NCBI GenBank assembly: GCA_027262695.1
Contig: GCA_027262695.1_4722.1
Direction: 5' to 3' (one strand)
Origin: a phage
DNA: 64,000 bases
Shown here: positions 26,419 through 42,522 of the stretch, piece after piece
How positions within the stretch are numbered: the first letter of the stretch is position 1
How the letters are laid out: every line of letters begins with the position of its first letter
Notes under the pieces: model-generated
What the model was told of the DNA's origin: nothing
Seen by the model: only the letters and a program-made list of their open reading frames with translations
Databases searched by the model: none
Made by a program: the position numbers and the translations under genes

Positions 26419-26450
26419 CCCTCCTCCAACCCGTAAGGGAAGGAGGAGGG
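26419..26450. terminator. hairpin CCCTCCTCC-AACCCGTAAGGGAA-GGAGGAGGG followed by TATGCCGT and A12
   Basis: Same hairpin family as 13571; motif at 26452-26459. Confidence 0.6.
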
Positions 26451-26521
26451 CTATGCCGTAAAGCAAAAAAAAAAAATGATAGTCACGAGCCCTCCAATGA
26501 AGGAGAGCCGTGACCGTCAGT

Positions 26522-30617: not shown

Positions 30618-31259
30618 TTATTCAACAAACCCTGCATTCAACAGATTGTCGTAAACACGATTAGCGACATCAACAGGAGAATGTGTGTTACTGGTATCTA
30701 TACGCAGCGTTTTCGCGTCGCCGAGATAGTCCATAAAATCCATGTAACGATAACGTCGTTTATTGAATGTCGCTTCATCGATGTTATCAAACATCTGATG
30801 TTTAGCGTGACGAACACGGAACCGCCTTAAATACGTAGGATAGTCGATATCCAGATAAACATAGTAAGACGGCATGATAATCGACGGTAGGTTCGGCAAC
30901 AATGCGTCAAACAACTTAACGTTGGCATCATTAACCTGATAAACATACGTCGAAGCAATCGAACGATCGCTAAGCACAGTCTTCCCTTCGTTAAGGGCTG
31001 GATGAATCACCTTGTTGAAGAGATGATTACGTTGCGACATCATCGCCAATAGTTCAGTTTCTGGATCGAATCTGTTCGTTGGTGTCTGATCTTCCAGGAT
31101 AAGTTTACGAATGGCTTCTCCGTAGAGCGTACCACCGGGTTCACGTACGACACAGACGTTGTTTAAACGACTGTGTAAAGACGAGATAACCGAACTCTTT
31201 CCTGAATAATCCAGACCTTCAATAACGATATATTTATTACGAGACATTCCCCGCTCCAA
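30618..31259 (-). CDS. tmk: thymidylate kinase (dTMP kinase)
   Basis: KYIVIEGLDYSGKSS P-loop and REPGGT motif match the Tmk pattern; 213 aa. Confidence 0.85.
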   Translation of the reverse strand: MERGMSRNKYIVIEGLDYSGKSSVISSLHSRLNNVCVVREPGGTLYGEAIRKLILEDQTPTNRFDPETELLAMMSQRNHLFNKVIHPALNEGKTVLSDRSIASTYVYQVNDANVKLFDALLPNLPSIIMPSYYVYLDIDYPTYLRRFRVRHAKHQMFDNIDEATFNKRRYRYMDFMDYLGDAKTLRIDTSNTHSPVDVANRVYDNLLNAGFVE

Positions 31260-31263
31260 TTAA

Positions 31264-32490
31264 CTACTTCGTTTTCGCCGTTATCGGCTGCGATACTGTA
31301 ATCTCGACCCGATCGACATCGGTACGTTTAACGATGATAAGGCTGCGTTCATCACCGAATGGTTCTGAGATCTTACAAGCCTCTTTAAGATTTTCGAGAA
31401 TCGTGCCATGGGGTTCAAACACCGCAAAACCGGAACTAGCGTCGATTCTTATTAAATATACACGCACATTGTTTACGGTAATGGTGTCATCCGTCTTGAA
31501 CCCACAGCAGGAGGGTAGACAGAACTGACCATTAACGCAATTAGCTAAGTATGCCTCACCACCGAACATTTCTATTAACGTCACCGGTTTAAATGTTTTC
31601 TCTGGGAAAGCATTATTAAGAATATCGTTTCCATTCACAAACCAGATCGTTACTTTATCTTCGGAATACGCTAGTCTGTATGGTTGGGTTGCGGACGCCT
31701 GCGCTTTATGCTGGTTAAATAACTTTGATTTTGTCGCAATCACAGCACGACCTTGGGCGTCAAAGTACAGAACTTCATACCCAACACATCCGATAAACAC
31801 GCGACGGTTATTAAGTTCCGGAATTCTGACTACTAACGCATTACCATCTTCCGTCGGTGTAATACCACGTAGGATGATAGATTCGTTGTTCAATGTTGAG
31901 TTGCTCACGATGACGCTTCGCATTACCGCTGGCGACACTATTTCATCTGCTGCAGGTTCAAGTTGCTCAGCTGTTACAGTCACGGATCTGTCTTCCTTTT
32001 CAACTGGCCAGTTGAAAAGGATTGTTTTATTAAGACAAACAATTGGGGTAATTTCGCCGATACTCCGTATCTTGACTGAGGGGCAATTGCACACATACGG
32101 AACAAAAACATCAATATCGTTGGTCGCTTCTTCAAGCATGCTAGCATACGCCATTGCTTCGGGACGATCGGTGAGATGAATAACAGCATAGACGATATCG
32201 TCTTTTAACCACGCACGTTTCACTCGTCCTATAACACGATTGATGTCTACAATAACTCTCTGAGCTTTCATCTCCCATTTTACTGCATCAGTACCACCCG
32301 CAACCACGTTCGGTTTATCCGTGTTTACACGATGAAGGAAACTATTGATTATTTCCTCATCGATCTGGATATCCTTTCTCGCAAAATTCAACAACGGAAT
32401 AACGAACTCATTGTTACCGCACTTCTCTGCTCCGCGAATGATAGGAGTACACTTCTTGTTCTCATCTGATCCCCAGATAACTTTAGTCAT
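31264..32490 (-). CDS. hypothetical protein
   Basis: ORF track 31264..32517 (GTG); ATG 32490 with AAGGA upstream preferred. Confidence 0.5.
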   Translation of the reverse strand: MTKVIWGSDENKKCTPIIRGAEKCGNNEFVIPLLNFARKDIQIDEEIINSFLHRVNTDKPNVVAGGTDAVKWEMKAQRVIVDINRVIGRVKRAWLKDDIVYAVIHLTDRPEAMAYASMLEEATNDIDVFVPYVCNCPSVKIRSIGEITPIVCLNKTILFNWPVEKEDRSVTVTAEQLEPAADEIVSPAVMRSVIVSNSTLNNESIILRGITPTEDGNALVVRIPELNNRRVFIGCVGYEVLYFDAQGRAVIATKSKLFNQHKAQASATQPYRLAYSEDKVTIWFVNGNDILNNAFPEKTFKPVTLIEMFGGEAYLANCVNGQFCLPSCCGFKTDDTITVNNVRVYLIRIDASSGFAVFEPHGTILENLKEACKISEPFGDERSLIIVKRTDVDRVEITVSQPITAKTK

Positions 32491-32523
32491 TTTCTGTTTC
32501 CTTCTTGGGTTTTGCACAAGTTT

Positions 32524-33138
32524 CTAACGGCGTTTTGTACCGACCTTCCCATTTCGATGGTCATCAAGAATACGCCATTCTTCGAACAGGAGTTCGGCTG
32601 CGAAATAACCTACAGCGATGCTGTCTATCGCATGCTCATCAAGATTCGCTAACACAACACCGTTTCTGGGTGTGATGTTCATGAGGTTCAACACTTTCTG
32701 GCGAACATCGTCCTTACCAACACGGGACGTCATAATCCCAACAGCGCGTTTTGCGCTTCGGTTATCAACCCCTAAGAAAGACACCGTAGGGTCAAAATCG
32801 ATAACCGTTGTCTGAATCGCTGAAAACAGCTCGCTGAGCGCCATACCGCTTTGCTTGAAACGACCGATGAATGGCGTCTCACAAGCGACCGCTTGCGGCT
32901 GGTACTCTTGCAATAACGTTGTCAGCGAACGACGGTGTTCTTGGATACGTGCGGCACGATTACCGTATCCAAGCGCAATATCGCCATCGGGATCATATCG
33001 ACGTGAAGCGTGCCATGTCCCTGCATACAGCAGTTCAATATCTTCGACACGCACGTCCAAACGTAGTAACGACGCACCGAGTGTATCGGTGCCAGGGTCG
33101 ATTGCCAGAATATCGTAAGCGTATTCTGGTGGGATCAT
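32524..33138 (-). CDS. RuvC-like Holliday junction resolvase
   Basis: ILAIDPGTDTLG (RuvC motif ILGIDPG), ACETPF, C-terminal DEHAIDSIAVG; ATG 33138 overlaps upstream stop (ATGA). Confidence 0.7.
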   Translation of the reverse strand: MIPPEYAYDILAIDPGTDTLGASLLRLDVRVEDIELLYAGTWHASRRYDPDGDIALGYGNRAARIQEHRRSLTTLLQEYQPQAVACETPFIGRFKQSGMALSELFSAIQTTVIDFDPTVSFLGVDNRSAKRAVGIMTSRVGKDDVRQKVLNLMNITPRNGVVLANLDEHAIDSIAVGYFAAELLFEEWRILDDHRNGKVGTKRR

Positions 33139-33950
33139 GGTGTTACAACAGCCTCTACTGACCATGGGAAGGTTTTCGCAACAACACCTTCCAGGAAGCG
33201 TTCAACTTCCGATTGCTCATACACCGAAAGCTTTTCGAACGGCGTTTGGTCTTCGGTTAAACCTACCGCATGAATAGGACCCAGGTCTTTAACCAGAGTG
33301 ACTTCGCCTTTAACGCCTTCGCGTTTAACGATGATCGCATGATCATTAACCTTGGGATCATACAGCACGCGCATCATGGTTACCGCGTCATCCGGTTCAT
33401 GACCGAAATCGATGGCAACACGAGCATTCGTCCCTTCATCATCCAGAAGCTTGCTCAGCGCTTTACAACGGTCTTCAATCCAATCCAACGCAACCACGGT
33501 TTCTTGGCGTAGCTGAACCTCAACTTCTTTTCCTTGTTCGTCGATACGTTTCACAGTAACAAAATCGTGTAATAGGCGGTCAGGAAGGAGGGAAGCAATA
33601 AGCTCAATGTTGGGTTCAGGTTTTTCGTTTTCCAGAATGATGGTCGCTTGTGCGTCCAGATGTTCTTTAAAACGGATGTAGCGCGTTAATCGCAGAACCT
33701 CGTCTTGGGATTTTGCGTCTTCGGGAATAATCTCCGTCATGACGTTATAAATCTTTTCAGCGAACGTCGGAATTACGGTGATTGTAATTCGTGCTGGTGT
33801 ACCGCGCTCCTGATACTCATCGGCTAACTTCTTGGCCATCCCGTTAAAATAGGTCTGGAGAAACGGTTGTTGTGTTAAAAACATTTTCTCCAGATCGGAA
33901 TAGCGATGCTTGCGTGCATGGCCTAGCTTCTTCATAGGCTTTTTCATCAA
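33135..33950 (-). CDS. hypothetical protein
   Basis: 271-aa ORF between Rad50-like and RuvC-like genes; no Mre11 phosphoesterase motifs seen. Confidence 0.5.
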   Translation of the reverse strand: MMKKPMKKLGHARKHRYSDLEKMFLTQQPFLQTYFNGMAKKLADEYQERGTPARITITVIPTFAEKIYNVMTEIIPEDAKSQDEVLRLTRYIRFKEHLDAQATIILENEKPEPNIELIASLLPDRLLHDFVTVKRIDEQGKEVEVQLRQETVVALDWIEDRCKALSKLLDDEGTNARVAIDFGHEPDDAVTMMRVLYDPKVNDHAIIVKREGVKGEVTLVKDLGPIHAVGLTEDQTPFEKLSVYEQSEVERFLEGVVAKTFPWSVEAVVTP

Positions 33951-33968
33951 CAGAAATCCTTATTTGTC

Positions 33969-36425
33969 TTAAATTATCGTGACATGTTCGTTATACGTTT
34001 CGGGGAGAATGATGTTCGTTTTATCAAGAACCATACACTCGGCTTTACGGAATGATGCATGGTTAATAACATAGTGGCTGATGAACCACACTTGGCTTAC
34101 GCGGTGACCATCAACCAAACGACGAACAAAATCCATGGCATTAGATTGGTGCTGCGGATCAAATGTTGATGCGAATTCATCTAACATCAACGGATAATCC
34201 GTGAACCCTTTGTAATGCATCATCGCGATGATGAACGCGATATTGATAATTTCCTTTTGTCCCTTACTCCCATAAACAATATCTTTTCGCGGTGTCGGAT
34301 ACTTCTCGGTTAAAAGTGGAAAACGATAGTTCAATCCTTGCGCATCGATAGCACATGGGAGTATCTGAAGTTGGTATTCCCAAATACTCGCAATGATACC
34401 GTTCATGTACTCAACGAACGCGTTGATTGGACCAGCGATTGTTTCGGCAATCAGTCCGTTAGATGGACTTAACTCATCCAGAACAAGTTGTGCGTAACTG
34501 AGCTGTTCTTCCACCTCTTTTTGTGTCGTTTCCAACTGAACCAGAAGCTGCTGGTCGGTTTTAGCTTCCTGTAGTTGCTGTTCGACATGACTTATTCGGC
34601 GAACTGTATCAGACATCGCAGCACGTAACGATTTCGTGTAGAGGTGTTGCAGATACTCTAACCACAGTTGCGTTAACGCTTTATCGCTGTTATCAGAACG
34701 TACCTGATCTTCCATAATCGACGTAATGGTTTCCAATCTACCTTCCGTAGCTGTGATGGCTTGTGTTAACCGCTCAACGGTTGTTAACAACTCTGTCCTG
34801 TTCTTATAAAGCAATTCTCGACGTTGCTGTAACGGTTCAACATCAACCGCTTGTACCCGTTCGAGCATACCTTGAAGATGCTTCCGTTCCTGTTCGGCTT
34901 GTGTGTAACGCGCAAGTTTCTCAAACGCAAGCAACCAATCGTTAATGATTCCAATGCTGCGGAATCCTAAACCGTTTTTACGTCCTTCTTCCAACAGATT
35001 ATCCCACATGGGTTTAATGGCGTAATAATCCTTCGTCCAACGCGTTAACTGACGATGTTGTTCCATCCAAAGCGTATAGCGCTGCACCTTCTCATTAAGT
35101 TCGGCTAACGATTTCTCCTGTTCTTCAACCCAAGCACGACCCTTCTGAATACGTTGTTCAATACCCGCTTTGCTGGTCTTTTCTGTCTCACCAACATGAA
35201 AGCGATAATTGCATTTTGGACAGCTGGTCTGGGGTTGATGGTTAAGGTGGTCGAGGTGCGCTTCTAAATCGGCTAACGCATGTTTCGCGTTACGCAAACG
35301 CATTCTTGCTGCCTCTTCCTCCTTGATGTAAGCTTCAGCGTCGTAAACATGATAGGTGTTGTCGGTATCAATCCATTCTTGGAGTAATTCCGTTAACGGA
35401 GCCTGAACTTGTGTGAGCTGTTGTAAACAAACCGCGGCGTCCAGATTCATTGTTAAAAGCTCACCTGGATGATCTTGCTGAAGTTGTTCATCCAAACAGG
35501 CAAGGCGGGCTTTAATCTGATCGATATCGCCTTCTCCAGACTGTTTCAACTGGTCAAGGATATTATCGATACCCAACAGCTCGTCAACCTGACTTTCGAG
35601 TTTCGCATTCGCATTCGCGAGTTGCTCTCTTAGTTCAGCCAGATTCTGCTGTTCTTGTTGCGATGTTCCTCCTTGGTAACGAACAACCGCGCGAAGAAGT
35701 TCGCGATTAAAATGATGGGCACGTTGTGCGGATTCCAGAAGCTGTCGTTGATCAACGTCGCTATCGAATAACGGCAATCCCATCATCGCTTCGAGCGCTG
35801 AGCGTTGCTGCTTTAACTCTGCTTCCAATCCCTGGTGGTCGGTTCCGGTGTATTTCGCTTCAATACGCTGTGATGTTTCAACCAACTTATTCAGTGTATG
35901 CTCATTCACCGCTTTCAGTGAACGTACTTGTTGCTTAACAACCTGAAACAACTCGAGCGCATAATCGACGTTAACCGGACATATCTGTGTTAATCGTTCG
36001 CGGCGTTTCATCGGTCCCATTTCGGTGAACTGATAAGCCGTTTCGTAACCTAGCAACAAACGAATGGTGTCATCATTAAGTTCGAAATGTTCTTCAATCA
36101 GTTTCCATTGGGCCGGTTGTGTACCACCACCGTTCAGGTTCTCGCTGTCGTTAACGTAGAACTCATGCTTAAACCCTTTTTCTAAACGACTGATAAGACG
36201 GTATTGCTTATTACGGTGTTCGCAGCGGTACTCGTAATACCCGTCTTTATCAAAATCAGCACGCTCAGGAACGGTCGGATACAGCAAAGGCAATAGACTA
36301 CTCTTACCGGAACCATTACTGCCTAAAATGAGTTGTACGGGATTATCTGGCCGGATGACCAGCTCCCGAATCATCCCGGTATCAAAACGATTGAATCCAC
36401 GTAAGTGGAGATAGGTGCATCGCAT
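33969..36425 (-). CDS. Rad50/SbcC-like SMC-family ATPase with coiled coil and CxxC zinc-hook
   Basis: Walker A LILGSNGSGKSSLL; central CPKC (about 35215-35226) inside long coiled coil; C-terminal signature-like GSKGQKE and Walker B PLMLDEF. Start set at ATG 36425. Confidence 0.7.
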   Translation of the reverse strand: MRCTYLHLRGFNRFDTGMIRELVIRPDNPVQLILGSNGSGKSSLLPLLYPTVPERADFDKDGYYEYRCEHRNKQYRLISRLEKGFKHEFYVNDSENLNGGGTQPAQWKLIEEHFELNDDTIRLLLGYETAYQFTEMGPMKRRERLTQICPVNVDYALELFQVVKQQVRSLKAVNEHTLNKLVETSQRIEAKYTGTDHQGLEAELKQQRSALEAMMGLPLFDSDVDQRQLLESAQRAHHFNRELLRAVVRYQGGTSQQEQQNLAELREQLANANAKLESQVDELLGIDNILDQLKQSGEGDIDQIKARLACLDEQLQQDHPGELLTMNLDAAVCLQQLTQVQAPLTELLQEWIDTDNTYHVYDAEAYIKEEEAARMRLRNAKHALADLEAHLDHLNHQPQTSCPKCNYRFHVGETEKTSKAGIEQRIQKGRAWVEEQEKSLAELNEKVQRYTLWMEQHRQLTRWTKDYYAIKPMWDNLLEEGRKNGLGFRSIGIINDWLLAFEKLARYTQAEQERKHLQGMLERVQAVDVEPLQQRRELLYKNRTELLTTVERLTQAITATEGRLETITSIMEDQVRSDNSDKALTQLWLEYLQHLYTKSLRAAMSDTVRRISHVEQQLQEAKTDQQLLVQLETTQKEVEEQLSYAQLVLDELSPSNGLIAETIAGPINAFVEYMNGIIASIWEYQLQILPCAIDAQGLNYRFPLLTEKYPTPRKDIVYGSKGQKEIINIAFIIAMMHYKGFTDYPLMLDEFASTFDPQHQSNAMDFVRRLVDGHRVSQVWFISHYVINHASFRKAECMVLDKTNIILPETYNEHVTII

Positions 36426-36450
36426 GCTATGATAATCCTTCTTCGATACC

Positions 36451-36496
36451 TTCTGAACCACGGGTTCAGAATGCGAAGCTGAAGCCATACTTCAGC
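36451..36496. promoter_or_regulatory. two adjacent inverted repeats in divergent promoter region
   Basis: TTCTGAACC-acg-GGTTCAGAA (36451-36471) and GCTGAAG-ccata-CTTCAGC (36478-36496). Confidence 0.35.
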
Positions 36497-36539
36497 GTTA
36501 TTTTCTATATCGTTATTTAAATCAGTAGGAGATTACAGC

Positions 36540-37628
36540 ATGAGCGACCTGGCAACAGACAATCGCACAAAAGGGAGTCAGCTAGCTCCAGACAACAACG
36601 TAAGCGTTTTCCGTATCTATGCCTTGGGTACTGTTGCTGCCGACTTTTCCAATAAAAGTCTGGAGGAAGATCCTAACCAAACGCTGGAGGTCTTTCTTGA
36701 TGAGATGATGTCAGGCGCTGATGGGAAAGTTGAAGCGGCGGGAAGCGTTAAAGAAGTCAGTGCAACAGACGCTCAAGGGAACAGTTATACGGCGAAAGCG
36801 GCAACAACAACCAGCGTACAGTGTTACTGGTTACCTTTCGGTAGTAACCGGATGACAGCACCTAACTTGAGGAAAGGTCAGCGTGTGGTGGTCTGGCGTA
36901 CTGCTGATGAAGAACAACTCTATTGGCAGCCCAAAGGAGGGGATAGTGAGCTGATGACCATGGAATCGGTTATCCTCACCGTCAGCGCACGTCCTAGCGC
37001 TAAGAAGGACCGTAAATCGATTTCAACGGAAGACTGCTATTACCTAATGGTTGATACCTTTCTTAAGAAAGCGGTTATCGGTACAAGCGCACAGCTTGGT
37101 GAAGTTACCCAAGTCTACATGGAACTTAATCTGGACGAGGGTTACCTACAGGTTGCGGACAGCGTCCATCAAAATCTGCTGTTACTCCATTTCGTTGAAC
37201 ATATGCTGCGTTATCAAAACCAGGACGACAGCATCATCGACGTGACAAAAAAGAACATCACATTCCAGTGCGAGGATACGCTCAAAGCCATCGCTAAGAA
37301 CGATATCCGAATGAAAGCAAAAAACATTTATACCGAATGTGAGAACTTCGAGCGTACCAGCAAAACAGAAAGCGTTACGAGTCAGAATGTTTCTTTGAAG
37401 TGTGACCGCTACACCGCGCAAGTATCAGGACAAACCACGTTCAAATGTCCTAATACGGTATTCACCGGAGCTGTAAGCTTCACAGGTGAGGACGGAAACA
37501 CGATGACGTTGAATGGGAACTTCGTACATGTTGCGGGCTCTTGGCGTTCACCAACCGGAACAAACGTATACACCCACGATCATGGTGGTGTAGATCGTGG
37601 TAGCGGTCGTACAGACCCGTTCCAATAA
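36540..37628 (+). CDS. hypothetical protein
   Basis: 362-aa ORF, AGGAGA upstream; isolated plus-strand gene with hairpin 37651-37684 downstream. Confidence 0.55.
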   Translation: MSDLATDNRTKGSQLAPDNNVSVFRIYALGTVAADFSNKSLEEDPNQTLEVFLDEMMSGADGKVEAAGSVKEVSATDAQGNSYTAKAATTTSVQCYWLPFGSNRMTAPNLRKGQRVVVWRTADEEQLYWQPKGGDSELMTMESVILTVSARPSAKKDRKSISTEDCYYLMVDTFLKKAVIGTSAQLGEVTQVYMELNLDEGYLQVADSVHQNLLLLHFVEHMLRYQNQDDSIIDVTKKNITFQCEDTLKAIAKNDIRMKAKNIYTECENFERTSKTESVTSQNVSLKCDRYTAQVSGQTTFKCPNTVFTGAVSFTGEDGNTMTLNGNFVHVAGSWRSPTGTNVYTHDHGGVDRGSGRTDPFQ

Positions 37629-40467: not shown

Positions 40468-40743
40468 TTATACGTCTTTTCTGTGCGCGTAGAACGCCTT
40501 CGTTCCGTTGTTGATCGCCTCAACCACATCCGGGGTTAACACAACGGCGATATCGCTTCGAGATGACGGTGCGTAATACCCTTCACCGTTCTCGGTAATC
40601 AGGCGATAACGGACTAAGCCTATGTTCGGTTCAACGCGTACCACTCTTTCGAGTTTGTACTTGATGATCTTCGTCAGGCCGATAGTCTCTGATGCGTAGA
40701 TGGCTTTATAAACTTTGTTCTTTGCTGTCGTTTTCATCAACAT
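40468..40743 (-). CDS. small hypothetical protein interleaved in paralog cluster
   Basis: ORF track 40468..40812; internal ATG 40743 chosen to limit overlap with paralog 1 (still 38 nt). Confidence 0.4.
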   Translation of the reverse strand: MLMKTTAKNKVYKAIYASETIGLTKIIKYKLERVVRVEPNIGLVRYRLITENGEGYYAPSSRSDIAVVLTPDVVEAINNGTKAFYAHRKDV

Positions 40744-41599
40744 GGTTTCTGTTTTCCTTGGTTTGTTGTGGTCCCAGGTCGGAGATATCCCAACGGATAT
40801 AACCAACATCACGGATTCGCTCGGCTGTTTCTTCGGATTGTGGATTACGACTGATAACCGGTAGCCATTCCCCTTCTCGGGTTATCTTAACTTCGGTGAT
40901 CTGTAAGCTCATGTTCCAACGAACGTCATAAACCAGCGCGTAACCAAGAGGATGAACAAGCCCATCTTGGTTATACATCTTCAAAAGACCTCTTACATCT
41001 TCGCTACGAAGTGATTTCATGGCTGGACGTACGCGTTGAAGTCTCTTTGTGATATCGTATCCCAACTTAATATCCTTCCAACCCGTCATGACGTAAGGAA
41101 CAACGTTGCGGCGACGGAGTTGATGGTTGTGAGTGGTTTCTTCGGCGGTAAGATGTACCCAACCGAGATCGCTGTACGCCACGAACCGCGCTCCTTCTCC
41201 ATCGAGCACTGTGTGCTCATCTAACGCTGCTGCAACACCATGGCCTGCGTAATACGACGGAAGAACGTTCAGCATTTTAATACGGCTTTCTTGACCGGTA
41301 TGGTCAGGGTCGATATGCGCGTAGTAATAATTACGGCTTACCGGACGACCTTCCGCCATACATCCACGGAAGACAGGGTCCTGCATTCCAAGCGGATGGT
41401 AATACGCGAGCTGTTGCTCGTCACCTTCCCCGATGACCAACAAACGATCTTCACGACTTGGTGTGCTAGGATCTTTCACCGTGATGTAGGTAACAATCAC
41501 TTTCAGATTGTCTAAAATGTCCTGTGGAAGTTTCTCTAAATCCCGTGCGTCGTAAATACGATTAACAACAACGTTTGCAATGTGTTTTGGTAAGCTCAT
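40706..41599 (-). CDS. member 1 of triplicated ~270-aa paralog family (unknown function)
   Basis: Shared motifs LAYYHPLGMQ, SDLGWVHL, HPLGYALVYDVRWN, GYIRWDISDL; unique C-terminal extension. Confidence 0.6.
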   Translation of the reverse strand: MSLPKHIANVVVNRIYDARDLEKLPQDILDNLKVIVTYITVKDPSTPSREDRLLVIGEGDEQQLAYYHPLGMQDPVFRGCMAEGRPVSRNYYYAHIDPDHTGQESRIKMLNVLPSYYAGHGVAAALDEHTVLDGEGARFVAYSDLGWVHLTAEETTHNHQLRRRNVVPYVMTGWKDIKLGYDITKRLQRVRPAMKSLRSEDVRGLLKMYNQDGLVHPLGYALVYDVRWNMSLQITEVKITREGEWLPVISRNPQSEETAERIRDVGYIRWDISDLGPQQTKENRNHVDENDSKEQSL

Positions 41600-41679: not shown

Positions 41680-42522
41680 TCACGCTTTCAAGTCTGAAAT
41701 ATCCCAACGTACGTAACCTGTACGCTCAATGTCGTCAACCAGTCGCTCGGTTTGATTTTCAACGCCAACGACGGGCACCCAATTTAAACGCCAGCGTCCA
41801 CCGACATTAACCTCAACACGCTGCAGATCTTCATTCCAACAAACCCCATTCGGTCTCAAAAAGCCCATCGGATGGATGTAGTCCTCATCGTAATCTTTCA
41901 ATAGCGCGAGAATATCGCTTCGGCTATAAGTCTTCACGCTTGCTAGATGTACGCTTTGTAGCTTATCACGCAGACCCCAACCGTACTCACTATCACGCCA
42001 TTCAGGCATGACAACCGGCAGTACATTCCGATGACGGATGTATTTTGCCGCTTCAGCAATATCAGCTGGGAGATGTATCCAACCTAAATCGCTGTTAGCG
42101 ACAAAATCAGGACTATCCATTTCATGGATGTAACGATCGTAAAGCGTAGCAGCGAGTCCTTCAGCAAGCACGTTTGTTGGAAGGAGGCAGTTGGCGCTTA
42201 TCTTGAAATCGAATACATCGGCATCAGGATCCACGTATGCGTAAAACCCGCGCGCAAAAGCACCGCCATGCTCTTTGAAGTAGTATTGGAACACAGCGTT
42301 TTGCATTCCGATGGGGTGGTAGTAAGCCAACACACGTTGTTCGCCGTCCGTGATTTCAATGAGCCGATCTTTCGGCTTCGGCCAGGTGATCTTCTCAACA
42401 TCGCAAACGCTGACGATCTTTCGTAGATTCACCTTGATATGTTCCGGGAGATGCCCGATTTCATTTTCATGATAAACACGGGTGATGACGTGATGAATAA
42501 CAGATTGTGGTTTAGCTGTCAT
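41680..42522 (-). CDS. member 2 of triplicated paralog family
   Basis: LAYYHPIGMQ, SDLGWIHL, HPMGFLRPNGVCWN, GYVRWDISDL. Confidence 0.6.
   Translation of the reverse strand: MTAKPQSVIHHVITRVYHENEIGHLPEHIKVNLRKIVSVCDVEKITWPKPKDRLIEITDGEQRVLAYYHPIGMQNAVFQYYFKEHGGAFARGFYAYVDPDADVFDFKISANCLLPTNVLAEGLAATLYDRYIHEMDSPDFVANSDLGWIHLPADIAEAAKYIRHRNVLPVVMPEWRDSEYGWGLRDKLQSVHLASVKTYSRSDILALLKDYDEDYIHPMGFLRPNGVCWNEDLQRVEVNVGGRWRLNWVPVVGVENQTERLVDDIERTGYVRWDISDLKA

Follow-up and report, generated by a model that had tools for sequence, protein, structure and literature searches.

Where is the nuclease partner of a phage-encoded Rad50/SbcC-like ATPase when none is recognisable in the genes around it, and has one of those genes perhaps taken its place? 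The question is raised by the minus-strand gene at 33969..36425 of the window, which here means the whole 64,000-nt stretch of phage DNA analysed. Its preliminary description had recognised a Rad50/SbcC-like ATPase with a zinc hook close to a RuvC-like resolvase, had reported 'no recognisable Mre11/SbcD partner', and had left it that either the nuclease is elsewhere or the gene next to the ATPase is a divergent or novel partner. The reading favoured here, and held with a good deal of confidence, is that the ATPase is one subunit of a known phage SbcCD-type system whose subunits are unlinked, the nuclease being encoded far off.

The source of the window, to judge from its sequence, is a Goslar-like chimallivirus, i.e. 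a nucleus-forming jumbo phage of enterobacterial hosts, with 96.6% nucleotide identity to Escherichia phage Goslar over 4.1 kb (~97%). For the biology of the phage nucleus, Goslar offers a tractable model in E. coli.

A Rad50-type ATPase

The predicted 818-aa product of 33969..36425 is Goslar gp012 (99.3% aa identity), the orthologue of phiKZ gp165 and the product of a core chimallivirus gene. The Rad50/SbcC architecture first proposed for it is borne out, in position as well as in kind, by Walker A (GSNGSGKS, aa 35-42, nt 36323-36300), the zinc hook (CPKC, aa 402-405, nt 35222-35211) halfway along the protein, the signature motif (SKGQ, aa 720, nt 34257-34268) and Walker B (LMLDE, aa 746-750, nt 34176-34190), to which can be added the D-loop residue D756 and the H-loop (SH, aa 783-784, nt 34074-34079). 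The insert of ~500 aa between the ATPase halves would, from this architecture, be a coiled coil. Alignment with phiKZ gp165 and with homologues from Noxifer, RAY, Eowyn and metagenomes (23-49% identity) shows G35, N37, G38, G40, K41, S42 and S43 of the Walker A region to be invariant in six divergent homologues, S720, D749, E750, D756 and H784 to be invariant across those aligned, and C402, P403 and C405 of the hook to be so across chimalliviruses; it also favours the ATG at 36425 as start codon over an upstream ATG at 36488.

Family searches concur. The best-matching PHROG is phrog_77, 'SbcC-like subunit' (E=3.2e-74), Rad50 leads when the family profile is compared with PDB (3aux at 8.3e-9, then 5f3w and 3qku), and Pfam SMC_N is matched at 1e-9 with 38.6 bits, slightly under its cutoff of 40. 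The complete set of ATPase motifs together with the zinc hook speaks for a Rad50-type protein rather than SMC or RecN. In phiKZ, orf165 tolerated zero transposon insertions (bioRxiv 10.1101/2025.11.23.690004).

A probable nuclease subunit encoded far from the ATPase

Within the window itself no ORF has a GNH[DE] motif, and a profile of chimallivirus SbcD found no nuclease copy there (best E=0.15, to an ORF other than the gene adjoining the ATPase). However, the subunits are unlinked in chimalliviruses, so that a missing neighbour in 64 kb is not evidence of the gene's absence. The nuclease gene was located in Goslar-like contigs, Goslar among them. In Goslar it encodes gp178, annotated as 'hypothetical', ~81 kb from the ATPase gene and beyond the limits of the window, in a conserved block where gp178, like phiKZ gp065, adjoins the genes for non-virion RNA polymerase, ChmC and PicA. 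By profile and by predicted structure gp178 is a divergent Mre11/SbcD homologue and the orthologue of phiKZ gp065, which RefSeq labels 'SbcD-like' (32% identity, E=1e-51). It matches phrog_100, 'SbcD-like', at 1.8e-40, and its family profile finds only Mre11/SbcD in PDB, with Thermotoga maritima Mre11 (2q8u, 2.1e-9) followed by Pyrococcus furiosus Mre11 and E. coli SbcD; the match to Pfam Metallophos (E=0.04) is below threshold. Invariant in 69-70 homologues of the gp178 type are D20, H22, G56, D57, D60, G96, T97, H100, D101, H172, G209, H210 and H212, with metal-binding motifs I, II, IV and V of the metallophosphoesterases canonical and motif III in the variant form G-T-x-x-H-D in place of GNH(D/E).

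The AlphaFold model of gp178 (pLDDT 92.5) has a nuclease domain and a capping domain, and the top 33 Foldseek matches to it in PDB are all Mre11/SbcD (best 8.8e-15, to 4nzv, with TM 0.73-0.75). Full-length chains of Mre11-Rad50 complexes align with the model over ~400 columns. Beyond a disordered linker (328-344) it ends in two helices, 352-363 and 369-376, and this predicted C-terminal helix-loop-helix is of the architecture of the Rad50-binding domain. With profile matches and a fold of this kind in a phage ~97% identical to the source of the window, the statement that there was no recognisable partner falls, and an SbcD gene elsewhere in the genome, which had been named as what would overturn it, is present in this reference. 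As to the alternatives left standing at the outset, 'elsewhere' proved correct, and nothing was found in support of the adjacent gene.

Partnership and what it may do

Each Goslar genome has one copy of the ATPase gene and one of the nuclease gene, and across phages the two travel together. Homologues of the ATPase are carried by 287 phage records and of the nuclease by 315, with the counts by genus (ATPase/nuclease) being 81/81 for Pseudomonas, 62/62 for Erwinia, 24/24 for Salmonella, 22/23 for Vibrio, 21/21 for Serratia, 19/19 for Aeromonas, 16/16 for Klebsiella and 13/13 for Ralstonia. SbcC and SbcD have been described as 'practically universally conserved' in jumbo phages (PMC7824862). Both phiKZ 065 ('Nuclease') and 165 ('SbcC-like nuclease') are in a core-gene list, and antisense knock-down of either reduces plaquing (PMC12571901). 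The two genes are in different conserved blocks, and since they are unlinked, partnership gets no support from genomic context. The identity of both subunits, the conservation of their motifs, the nuclease fold and the co-occurrence of the genes are matters of observation.

On this view the phage would have an Mre11-Rad50 (SbcCD-type) complex of its own for processing DNA ends, with the ATPase as its Rad50/SbcC subunit. Two ATPase heads, linked through the CPxC zinc hook at the far end of the long coiled coil, would hold DNA ends or hairpins in a clamp that depends on ATP, and the divergent Mre11/SbcD subunit (Goslar gp178, phiKZ gp065) may attach through a helix-loop-helix of the type that binds the base of the Rad50 coiled coil. 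If T4 gp46/gp47 are a guide, the complex might then resect ends and thereby supply the phage recombinase, serving recombination-dependent replication and repair within the phage nucleus, with the RuvC-like resolvase cutting branched concatemers before packaging. It is by such reasoning that we infer the physical association of the ATPase with gp178, the substrates of the complex and its role in replication.

Neighbouring genes and other readings of the locus

The genes that do adjoin the ATPase invite a different kind of speculation. On the other strand, and divergent from it, is a baseplate assembly gene (36540..37628, plus strand; phiKZ gp164 family, phrog_3216 at 9.8e-62), the only neighbour of the ATPase conserved across chimalliviruses and with the same divergent layout in phiKZ, Noxifer, RAY and Eowyn. 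On the minus strand, after a gap of 21 nt, comes an ATG-initiated gene for a 270-aa protein (33135..33947, Goslar gp011; 33135..33950 in the preliminary description), followed by that for a predicted RuvC Holliday-junction resolvase of 204 aa (32524..33138; Goslar gp010, phiKZ gp140 family). The early recognition of the latter holds up, with PF02075 matched at 26.0 bits (E=9.3e-6) against a gathering cutoff of 22.2, phrog_159 at 1.6e-21 and acidic residues at the expected places as read from the sequence (D in AIDPGTD, E in ACETPF and D..D in DEHAIDS); it is 100% identical in aa to gp010 and has a homologue in 213 phage records. As annotated in Goslar, its start is most likely at 33138, not 33165, and an ATGA there gives a 4-nt overlap with the stop of the 270-aa gene, as also in L016-L018. 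Further on are a hypervariable 408-aa ORFan (31264..32490, minus strand), which has no match in Pfam, PHROG or PADLOC and is only 62% identical in aa to Goslar gp009 when the flanking genes are 98-100% identical, its slot being occupied by a 163-aa gene in L016 and empty in L012, and the thymidylate kinase gene (30618..31259, minus strand; Goslar gp008, PF02223 at E=9.8e-28). The latter closes the same-strand block, and downstream of it is the sole reasonable minus-strand terminator-like hairpin (30142-30118).

What is the 270-aa protein doing between an ATPase and a resolvase? One suggestion, compatible with the SbcCD-type explanation and adding a third component to it, is a Goslar-clade accessory factor of end processing or resolution, for instance a DNA-binding or regulatory adaptor for the ATPase or for RuvC. 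In its favour the gene keeps its slot between the two in three lineages of only 44-46% identity, purifying selection on it is strong (pN/pS of 0.049 against Goslar), its divergence roughly keeps pace with that of the ATPase (45-46% identity to the L012 lineage, as against 49% for the ATPase), its product has a basic N-terminal tail (pI 10.4), and the 4-nt overlap with RuvC suggests translational coupling. Against this, adjacency is weak evidence in a densely packed phage genome, the protein is without detectable homology to anything, beside the ATPase or RuvC of other chimalliviruses, where the neighbours differ, the gene is absent or unrecognisable, and structure prediction gave only an unusable model (AlphaFold pLDDT 45.8). 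We regard an accessory role of some sort as rather unlikely, and the more specific proposal, of a new accessory subunit linking Mre11-Rad50 end processing to RuvC junction resolution in the phage nucleus, as less likely still; if true, such a linker would be a viral functional analogue of Nbs1/Sae2 or RuvA, albeit without sequence relatives.

Might the ATPase instead work free of any nuclease, as an SMC/RecN-like DNA tether or genome organiser in the phage nucleus, with the Mre11-like protein independent of it? The residence of the two genes in different conserved blocks would suit this, as would the structural (baseplate) gene next to the ATPase and the unequal strengths of knock-down in phiKZ, '++' for 065 and '+' for 165 (PMC12571901). 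However, the phyletic distributions of the two genes match, the Mre11-like protein retains a C-terminal helix-loop-helix past its flexible linker and aligns with complex chains over those ~400 columns, and the hook and full motif set are typical of Rad50, not of SMC or RecN, which leaves an independent ATPase improbable.

Less probable again, and largely refuted, is that Mre11/SbcD has been replaced, as partner of the ATPase, by the 270-aa protein acting as a novel nuclease of non-phosphoesterase type. All that speaks for it is the position directly downstream of the ATPase and the lack of an Mre11 gene within the window, whereas a bona fide Mre11/SbcD homologue exists in this type of genome and accompanies the ATPase in all chimalliviruses. 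Exhaustive searches and a profile search found homologues of the 270-aa protein only in Goslar-like contigs, a range limited to one small clade when the ATPase is a core gene. Metallophosphoesterase motifs (DxH, GDxxD, GNH[DE], H, GHxH) are absent from it, in line with the lack of phosphoesterase motifs noted in the preliminary description; no nuclease motif or family match was found in Pfam, PHROG or PADLOC, and its family profile has no match in PDB even at E<=10, so that it is no SbcD in its own right.

Scarcely credible, and already discounted at the outset, is a part for the ATPase in an SMC-like defence or counter-defence system on the phage (Lamassu LmuB-like, Wadjet-like or similar), for its weak PADLOC matches (LmuB at 8.4e-12 with partial coverage, mad3 at 1.9e-10 and other ABC/SMC-type ATPase models) are expected of any Rad50/SMC-type ATPase and score far below the phage SbcC family, its best PDB family is Rad50, its gene belongs to the single-copy core of a lytic phage family and is essential in phiKZ (bioRxiv 10.1101/2025.11.23.690004), and in place of the cognate partners that Lamassu and Wadjet have in one locus with their ATPase, whether an LmuA-type effector or JetA/B/D, the neighbours are baseplate, ORFan, RuvC and thymidylate kinase genes, none of which matches any defence model.

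Implications and comparison with known systems

Taken for itself the ATPase is an ordinary finding, as it belongs to a system already known and matters little beyond annotation. In practice, Goslar gp178 and the corresponding proteins of Goslar-like genomes, now carried as 'hypothetical protein', merit annotation as Mre11/SbcD-like nucleases, which would complete the SbcCD-type complex of the phage. All that is left over is the small ORFan family that, in the Goslar-like clade, has its fixed place between ATPase and RuvC.

With Lamassu LmuB and Wadjet JetC the ATPase shares the general Rad50/SMC-type ABC head and coiled coil, as the weak LmuB match reflects, but it is without partner effector genes, is a core essential gene and is much closer to phage SbcC and to Rad50. 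The Mre11-Rad50 proteins of T. maritima, P. furiosus and Methanocaldococcus jannaschii provide the best PDB matches for both phage subunits; in contrast to these archaeal and bacterial proteins those of the phage are very divergent, and the likeness comes from sequence and predicted fold. We know of no Nbs1/Xrs2-type third subunit.

T4 gp46/gp47, T5 D12/D13 and E. coli SbcCD likewise pair a Rad50-type ATPase, with coiled coil and zinc hook, with an Mre11-type metallophosphoesterase that has a capping domain, and in T4 the role of gp46/gp47 in end resection for recombination-dependent replication is established. By Foldseek the gp178 fold matches SbcD of E. coli at E=1.2e-10 and of Staphylococcus aureus at 1.1e-12, though with cellular homologues no more than 13-20% of residues are identical. 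The differences are that T4, T5 and E. coli have the two genes side by side and transcribed together, as against the ~81 kb between them in Goslar, and that motif III in those systems is GNH(D/E) rather than the variant of gp178.

Closest of all is phiKZ, where gp165 and gp065 (phrog_77 and phrog_100) are the direct orthologues of the ATPase and of gp178. Along most of its length gp165 is 26% identical to the ATPase, and it shares with it every motif as well as the CPxC hook; in both phages the ATPase gene is divergent from the gp164-family baseplate gene and the nuclease gene lies in the block with ChmC, a sigma-like gene and PicA. In phiKZ-type genomes, however, RuvC (gp140) follows a virion protein gene in the tail/lysis region, whereas in the Goslar-like clade it has moved, together with the clade-specific 270-aa gene, to a place immediately downstream of the ATPase.

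A Rad50/SbcC-like ATPase of nucleus-forming phages

The 818-aa product of the ORF at 33969-36425 (-) is a known, annotated core gene product of chimalliviruses, orthologous to phiKZ gp165, and the Rad50/SbcC architecture assigned to it in the preliminary description is borne out. Walker A (GSNGSGKS) is at aa 35-42, CPKC at the protein midpoint (aa 402-405; nt 35222-35211), the signature SKGQ at aa 720, Walker B (LMLDE) at aa 746-750 and the H-loop at S783-H784. On alignment with phiKZ gp165, the homologues of Noxifer, RAY and Eowyn and one metagenomic relative (23-49% identity), the motif residues are invariant, C402, P403, C405, D749, E750, D756 and H784 among them. The protein matches PHROG family phrog_77, ‘SbcC-like subunit of palindrome specific endonuclease’ (3.2e-74), Rad50 proteins are the top PDB matches of its family profile (3aux, 8.3e-9), and its match to Pfam SMC_N, at 1e-9, is slightly below cutoff. 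N-terminal alignment favours ATG 36425 as the start rather than the upstream ATG at 36488.

The locus (32497-36600) is 96.6% identical to DNA of Escherichia phage vB_EcoM_Goslar (Goslar), with the two records of that phage as the only matches. Goslar, a nucleus-forming jumbo phage of 237 kb, has a nuclear shell protein and the tubulin PhuZ annotated in its record; against it the pN/pS of the ATPase is 0.018. Near the ATPase gene the window coordinate equals the Goslar coordinate + 26,470, and therefore the window spans approximately 210.8-237.3 kb of Goslar followed by 1-37.5 kb. Within the window, at ~26420-26470, lies position 1 of the linear Goslar record, whose ends are arbitrary and are therefore crossed here. 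An identical ATPase protein is also encoded on contig ABJYRE010000004.1 of NCBI assembly GCA_027262755.1. Many isolate assemblies at NCBI with the labels Salmonella enterica, E. coli or Shigella sonnei contain near-complete Goslar-like genomes as contigs of 236-248 kb, which suggests that enterobacterial cultures often carry these lytic jumbo phages or are contaminated with them. Further along, 40706-41599 (-) and 41680-42522 (-) are tandem paralogues (36% identical over 275 aa, E=2.7e-57), their position matching the 894-nt Goslar gene for virion structural protein gp022 and a preceding stretch with no gene annotated in Goslar.

SMC-like ATPases of the Lamassu or Wadjet type invite the reading that this one serves in a defence system, and PADLOC does match it to LmuB (8.4e-12) and mad3 (1.9e-10). 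These matches are, however, weak and of generic ATPase type, the neighbours of the gene match nothing in PADLOC, and the gene is single-copy core, its phiKZ counterpart taking no transposon insertions (bioRxiv 10.1101/2025.11.23.690004). A role in defence is rejected.

The nuclease partner

The Goslar record is annotated without any SbcD or Mre11, and a GNH[DE] regular expression finds nothing in any ORF of the window or of Goslar. One annotated metallophosphoesterase of Goslar, gp157 (185 aa), was considered as the partner and set aside, its type having a patchy distribution (Enterococcus, Bacillus, Streptomyces and some Erwinia phages) that does not track the ATPase. The literature points elsewhere: Iyer et al. 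describe both SbcC and SbcD as practically universal among jumbo phages (PMC7824862), and a phiKZ antisense screen lists the core ‘Nuclease 065’ beside ‘SbcC-like nuclease 165’ (PMC12571901). In RefSeq phiKZ gp065 is an ‘SbcD-like subunit of palindrome specific endonuclease’.

By position and sequence the Goslar counterpart of phiKZ gp065 is gp178 (NC_048170 162,609-163,751 (-)), annotated as ‘hypothetical protein’, a label that is a gap in the annotation of the reference genome. It is 32% identical to gp065 (E=1e-51) and matches phrog_100, ‘SbcD-like’ (1.8e-40), with a marginal Pfam Metallophos match (E=0.04). Across 69-70 aligned homologues the invariant residues are D20 and H22 (motif I), G56, D57 and D60 (motif II), G96, T97, H100 and D101 (a motif III variant, G-T-x-x-H-D), H172 (motif IV), and G209, H210 and H212 (motif V). 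It is because this motif III is non-canonical that simple GNH[DE] scans fail, and motif scanning by itself would have falsely affirmed the absence of a partner.

Against PDB, the leading matches of the gp178 family profile are Mre11/SbcD only; T. maritima Mre11 is the best match (2.1e-9, over the entire nuclease domain), followed by P. furiosus Mre11 and E. coli SbcD. A confident AlphaFold model of a protein identical to gp178 (pLDDT 92.5, pTM 0.82) has nuclease and capping domains and, after a linker that is disordered (328-344), a helix-loop-helix at the C terminus (352-376), and the top 33 Foldseek matches of this model in PDB are all Mre11/SbcD (best 4nzv, 8.8e-15; TM 0.73-0.75 on the target). 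By profile and predicted structure, then, gp178 is a clear Mre11/SbcD-like nuclease. Searched with the family profile, Goslar has exactly one such ORF (5e-125), and none is found among the ORFs of the window.

The preliminary description had seen no recognisable Mre11/SbcD partner, a view that by its own account an SbcD gene elsewhere in the genome would overturn; in Goslar gp178 is that gene, and the alternative then offered, of a nuclease encoded elsewhere, is the one that holds. Searched by tblastn against phage records, the ATPase is present in 287 and the nuclease in 315, with near-identical counts by genus (ATPase/nuclease: Pseudomonas 81/81, Erwinia 62/62, Salmonella 24/24, Vibrio 22/23, Serratia 21/21, Aeromonas 19/19, Klebsiella 16/16, Ralstonia 13/13); many of the records already label the nuclease ‘nuclease SbcCD, D subunit’. 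The two genes are unlinked throughout the chimalliviruses, and therefore a 64-kb window holds the ATPase alone. That the partner looked to be missing is due to the size of the window and to the incomplete annotation of Goslar.

Genes beside the ATPase

With the ATPase itself already known, the residual curiosities are the clade-specific 270-aa ORFan between it and RuvC, together with the hypervariable gene on the far side of RuvC. Only one neighbour of the ATPase gene is conserved throughout the chimalliviruses, a baseplate gene transcribed divergently from it. The gene that lies downstream of the ATPase varies by genus.

That downstream gene here, at 33135-33947 (-), is real, as judged from a pN/pS against Goslar of 0.049. 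It had been put forward as a possible divergent or novel nuclease partner despite its lack of phosphoesterase motifs. The lack is confirmed by regular expression, and the product has no match in Pfam, PHROG, PADLOC or PDB and belongs to no PHROG family. A word-indexed search of 5.8 billion proteins, tblastn of all phage records, exhaustive HMMER against 1.84 billion representatives and a profile search place its relatives, 44-46% identical, in a few lineages of the Goslar-like clade only. Two further weak matches were discarded, one a 632-aa eukaryotic ankyrin/repeat protein whose repeats inflate the score, the other a fragment of another match. Nor is the ORFan a divergent form of the ~295-aa virion protein encoded ahead of RuvC in phiKZ, PhiPA3, Noxifer and Deimos-Minion (hhalign probability 0.6%), and neither it nor the 408-aa ORFan described below has similarity to RAY gp24, encoded downstream of the RAY ATPase. 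Its AlphaFold model, from a four-sequence alignment, is unusable (pLDDT 45.8). The 270-aa ORFan is not the nuclease partner; from its gene position an accessory role is possible.

The RuvC-like neighbour (32524-33138 (-)) reported earlier stands: it matches PF02075 above cutoff and phrog_159 with 1.6e-21. As in the Goslar annotation, it starts at 33138, with a 4-nt overlap on the stop of the preceding gene. In three of three lineages the order is ATPase, 270-aa ORFan, RuvC with the 4-nt overlap, a variable slot and thymidylate kinase. In other chimalliviruses RuvC comes after the ~295-aa virion protein, and only in the Goslar-like clade has a rearrangement brought it beside the Rad50-like ATPase. 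The RuvC-like gene of Noxifer, PhiPA3 and Deimos-Minion (phiKZ gp140 family) lies in the tail/lysis region, directly behind that structural gene.

The variable slot is occupied here by a 408-aa ORFan (31264-32490 (-)) with 11 cysteines and no family match, 62% identical to the 391-aa Goslar gp009 whereas the flanking gene products are 98-100% identical. Related lineages have a 163-aa gene in the slot, or nothing, which suggests an accessory position that is hypervariable or exchangeable. Since the 408-aa ORFan and gp009 differ in length, the Goslar offset shifts by 50 nt, from 26,470 at RuvC to 26,420 at thymidylate kinase (30618-31259 (-)).

On the minus strand there is no convincing terminator from 36425 to 30618, and a hairpin is present at 30142-30118; these tentative indications therefore suggest that the five genes of 36425-30618 (-) probably form one transcription unit. 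A scan for sigma-70 promoters found 10 against 12.7 expected, which is uninformative; these phages rely on RNA polymerases of their own.

A likely division of labor

To judge from their sequences both subunits are present with catalytic motifs conserved, and the modelled nuclease has an Mre11 fold and a tail of the Rad50-binding type. The chimallin nucleus keeps out host repair enzymes, and it is within that nucleus that a complex of the two would process DNA ends or hairpins, supplying the phage recombinase in recombination-dependent replication and repair, with RuvC resolving branches afterwards, ahead of packaging. Such a complex may well be a heterotetramer bridged by zinc hooks; this, like the role proposed for it, follows what is known of T4 gp46/47 and of SbcCD/Mre11-Rad50.
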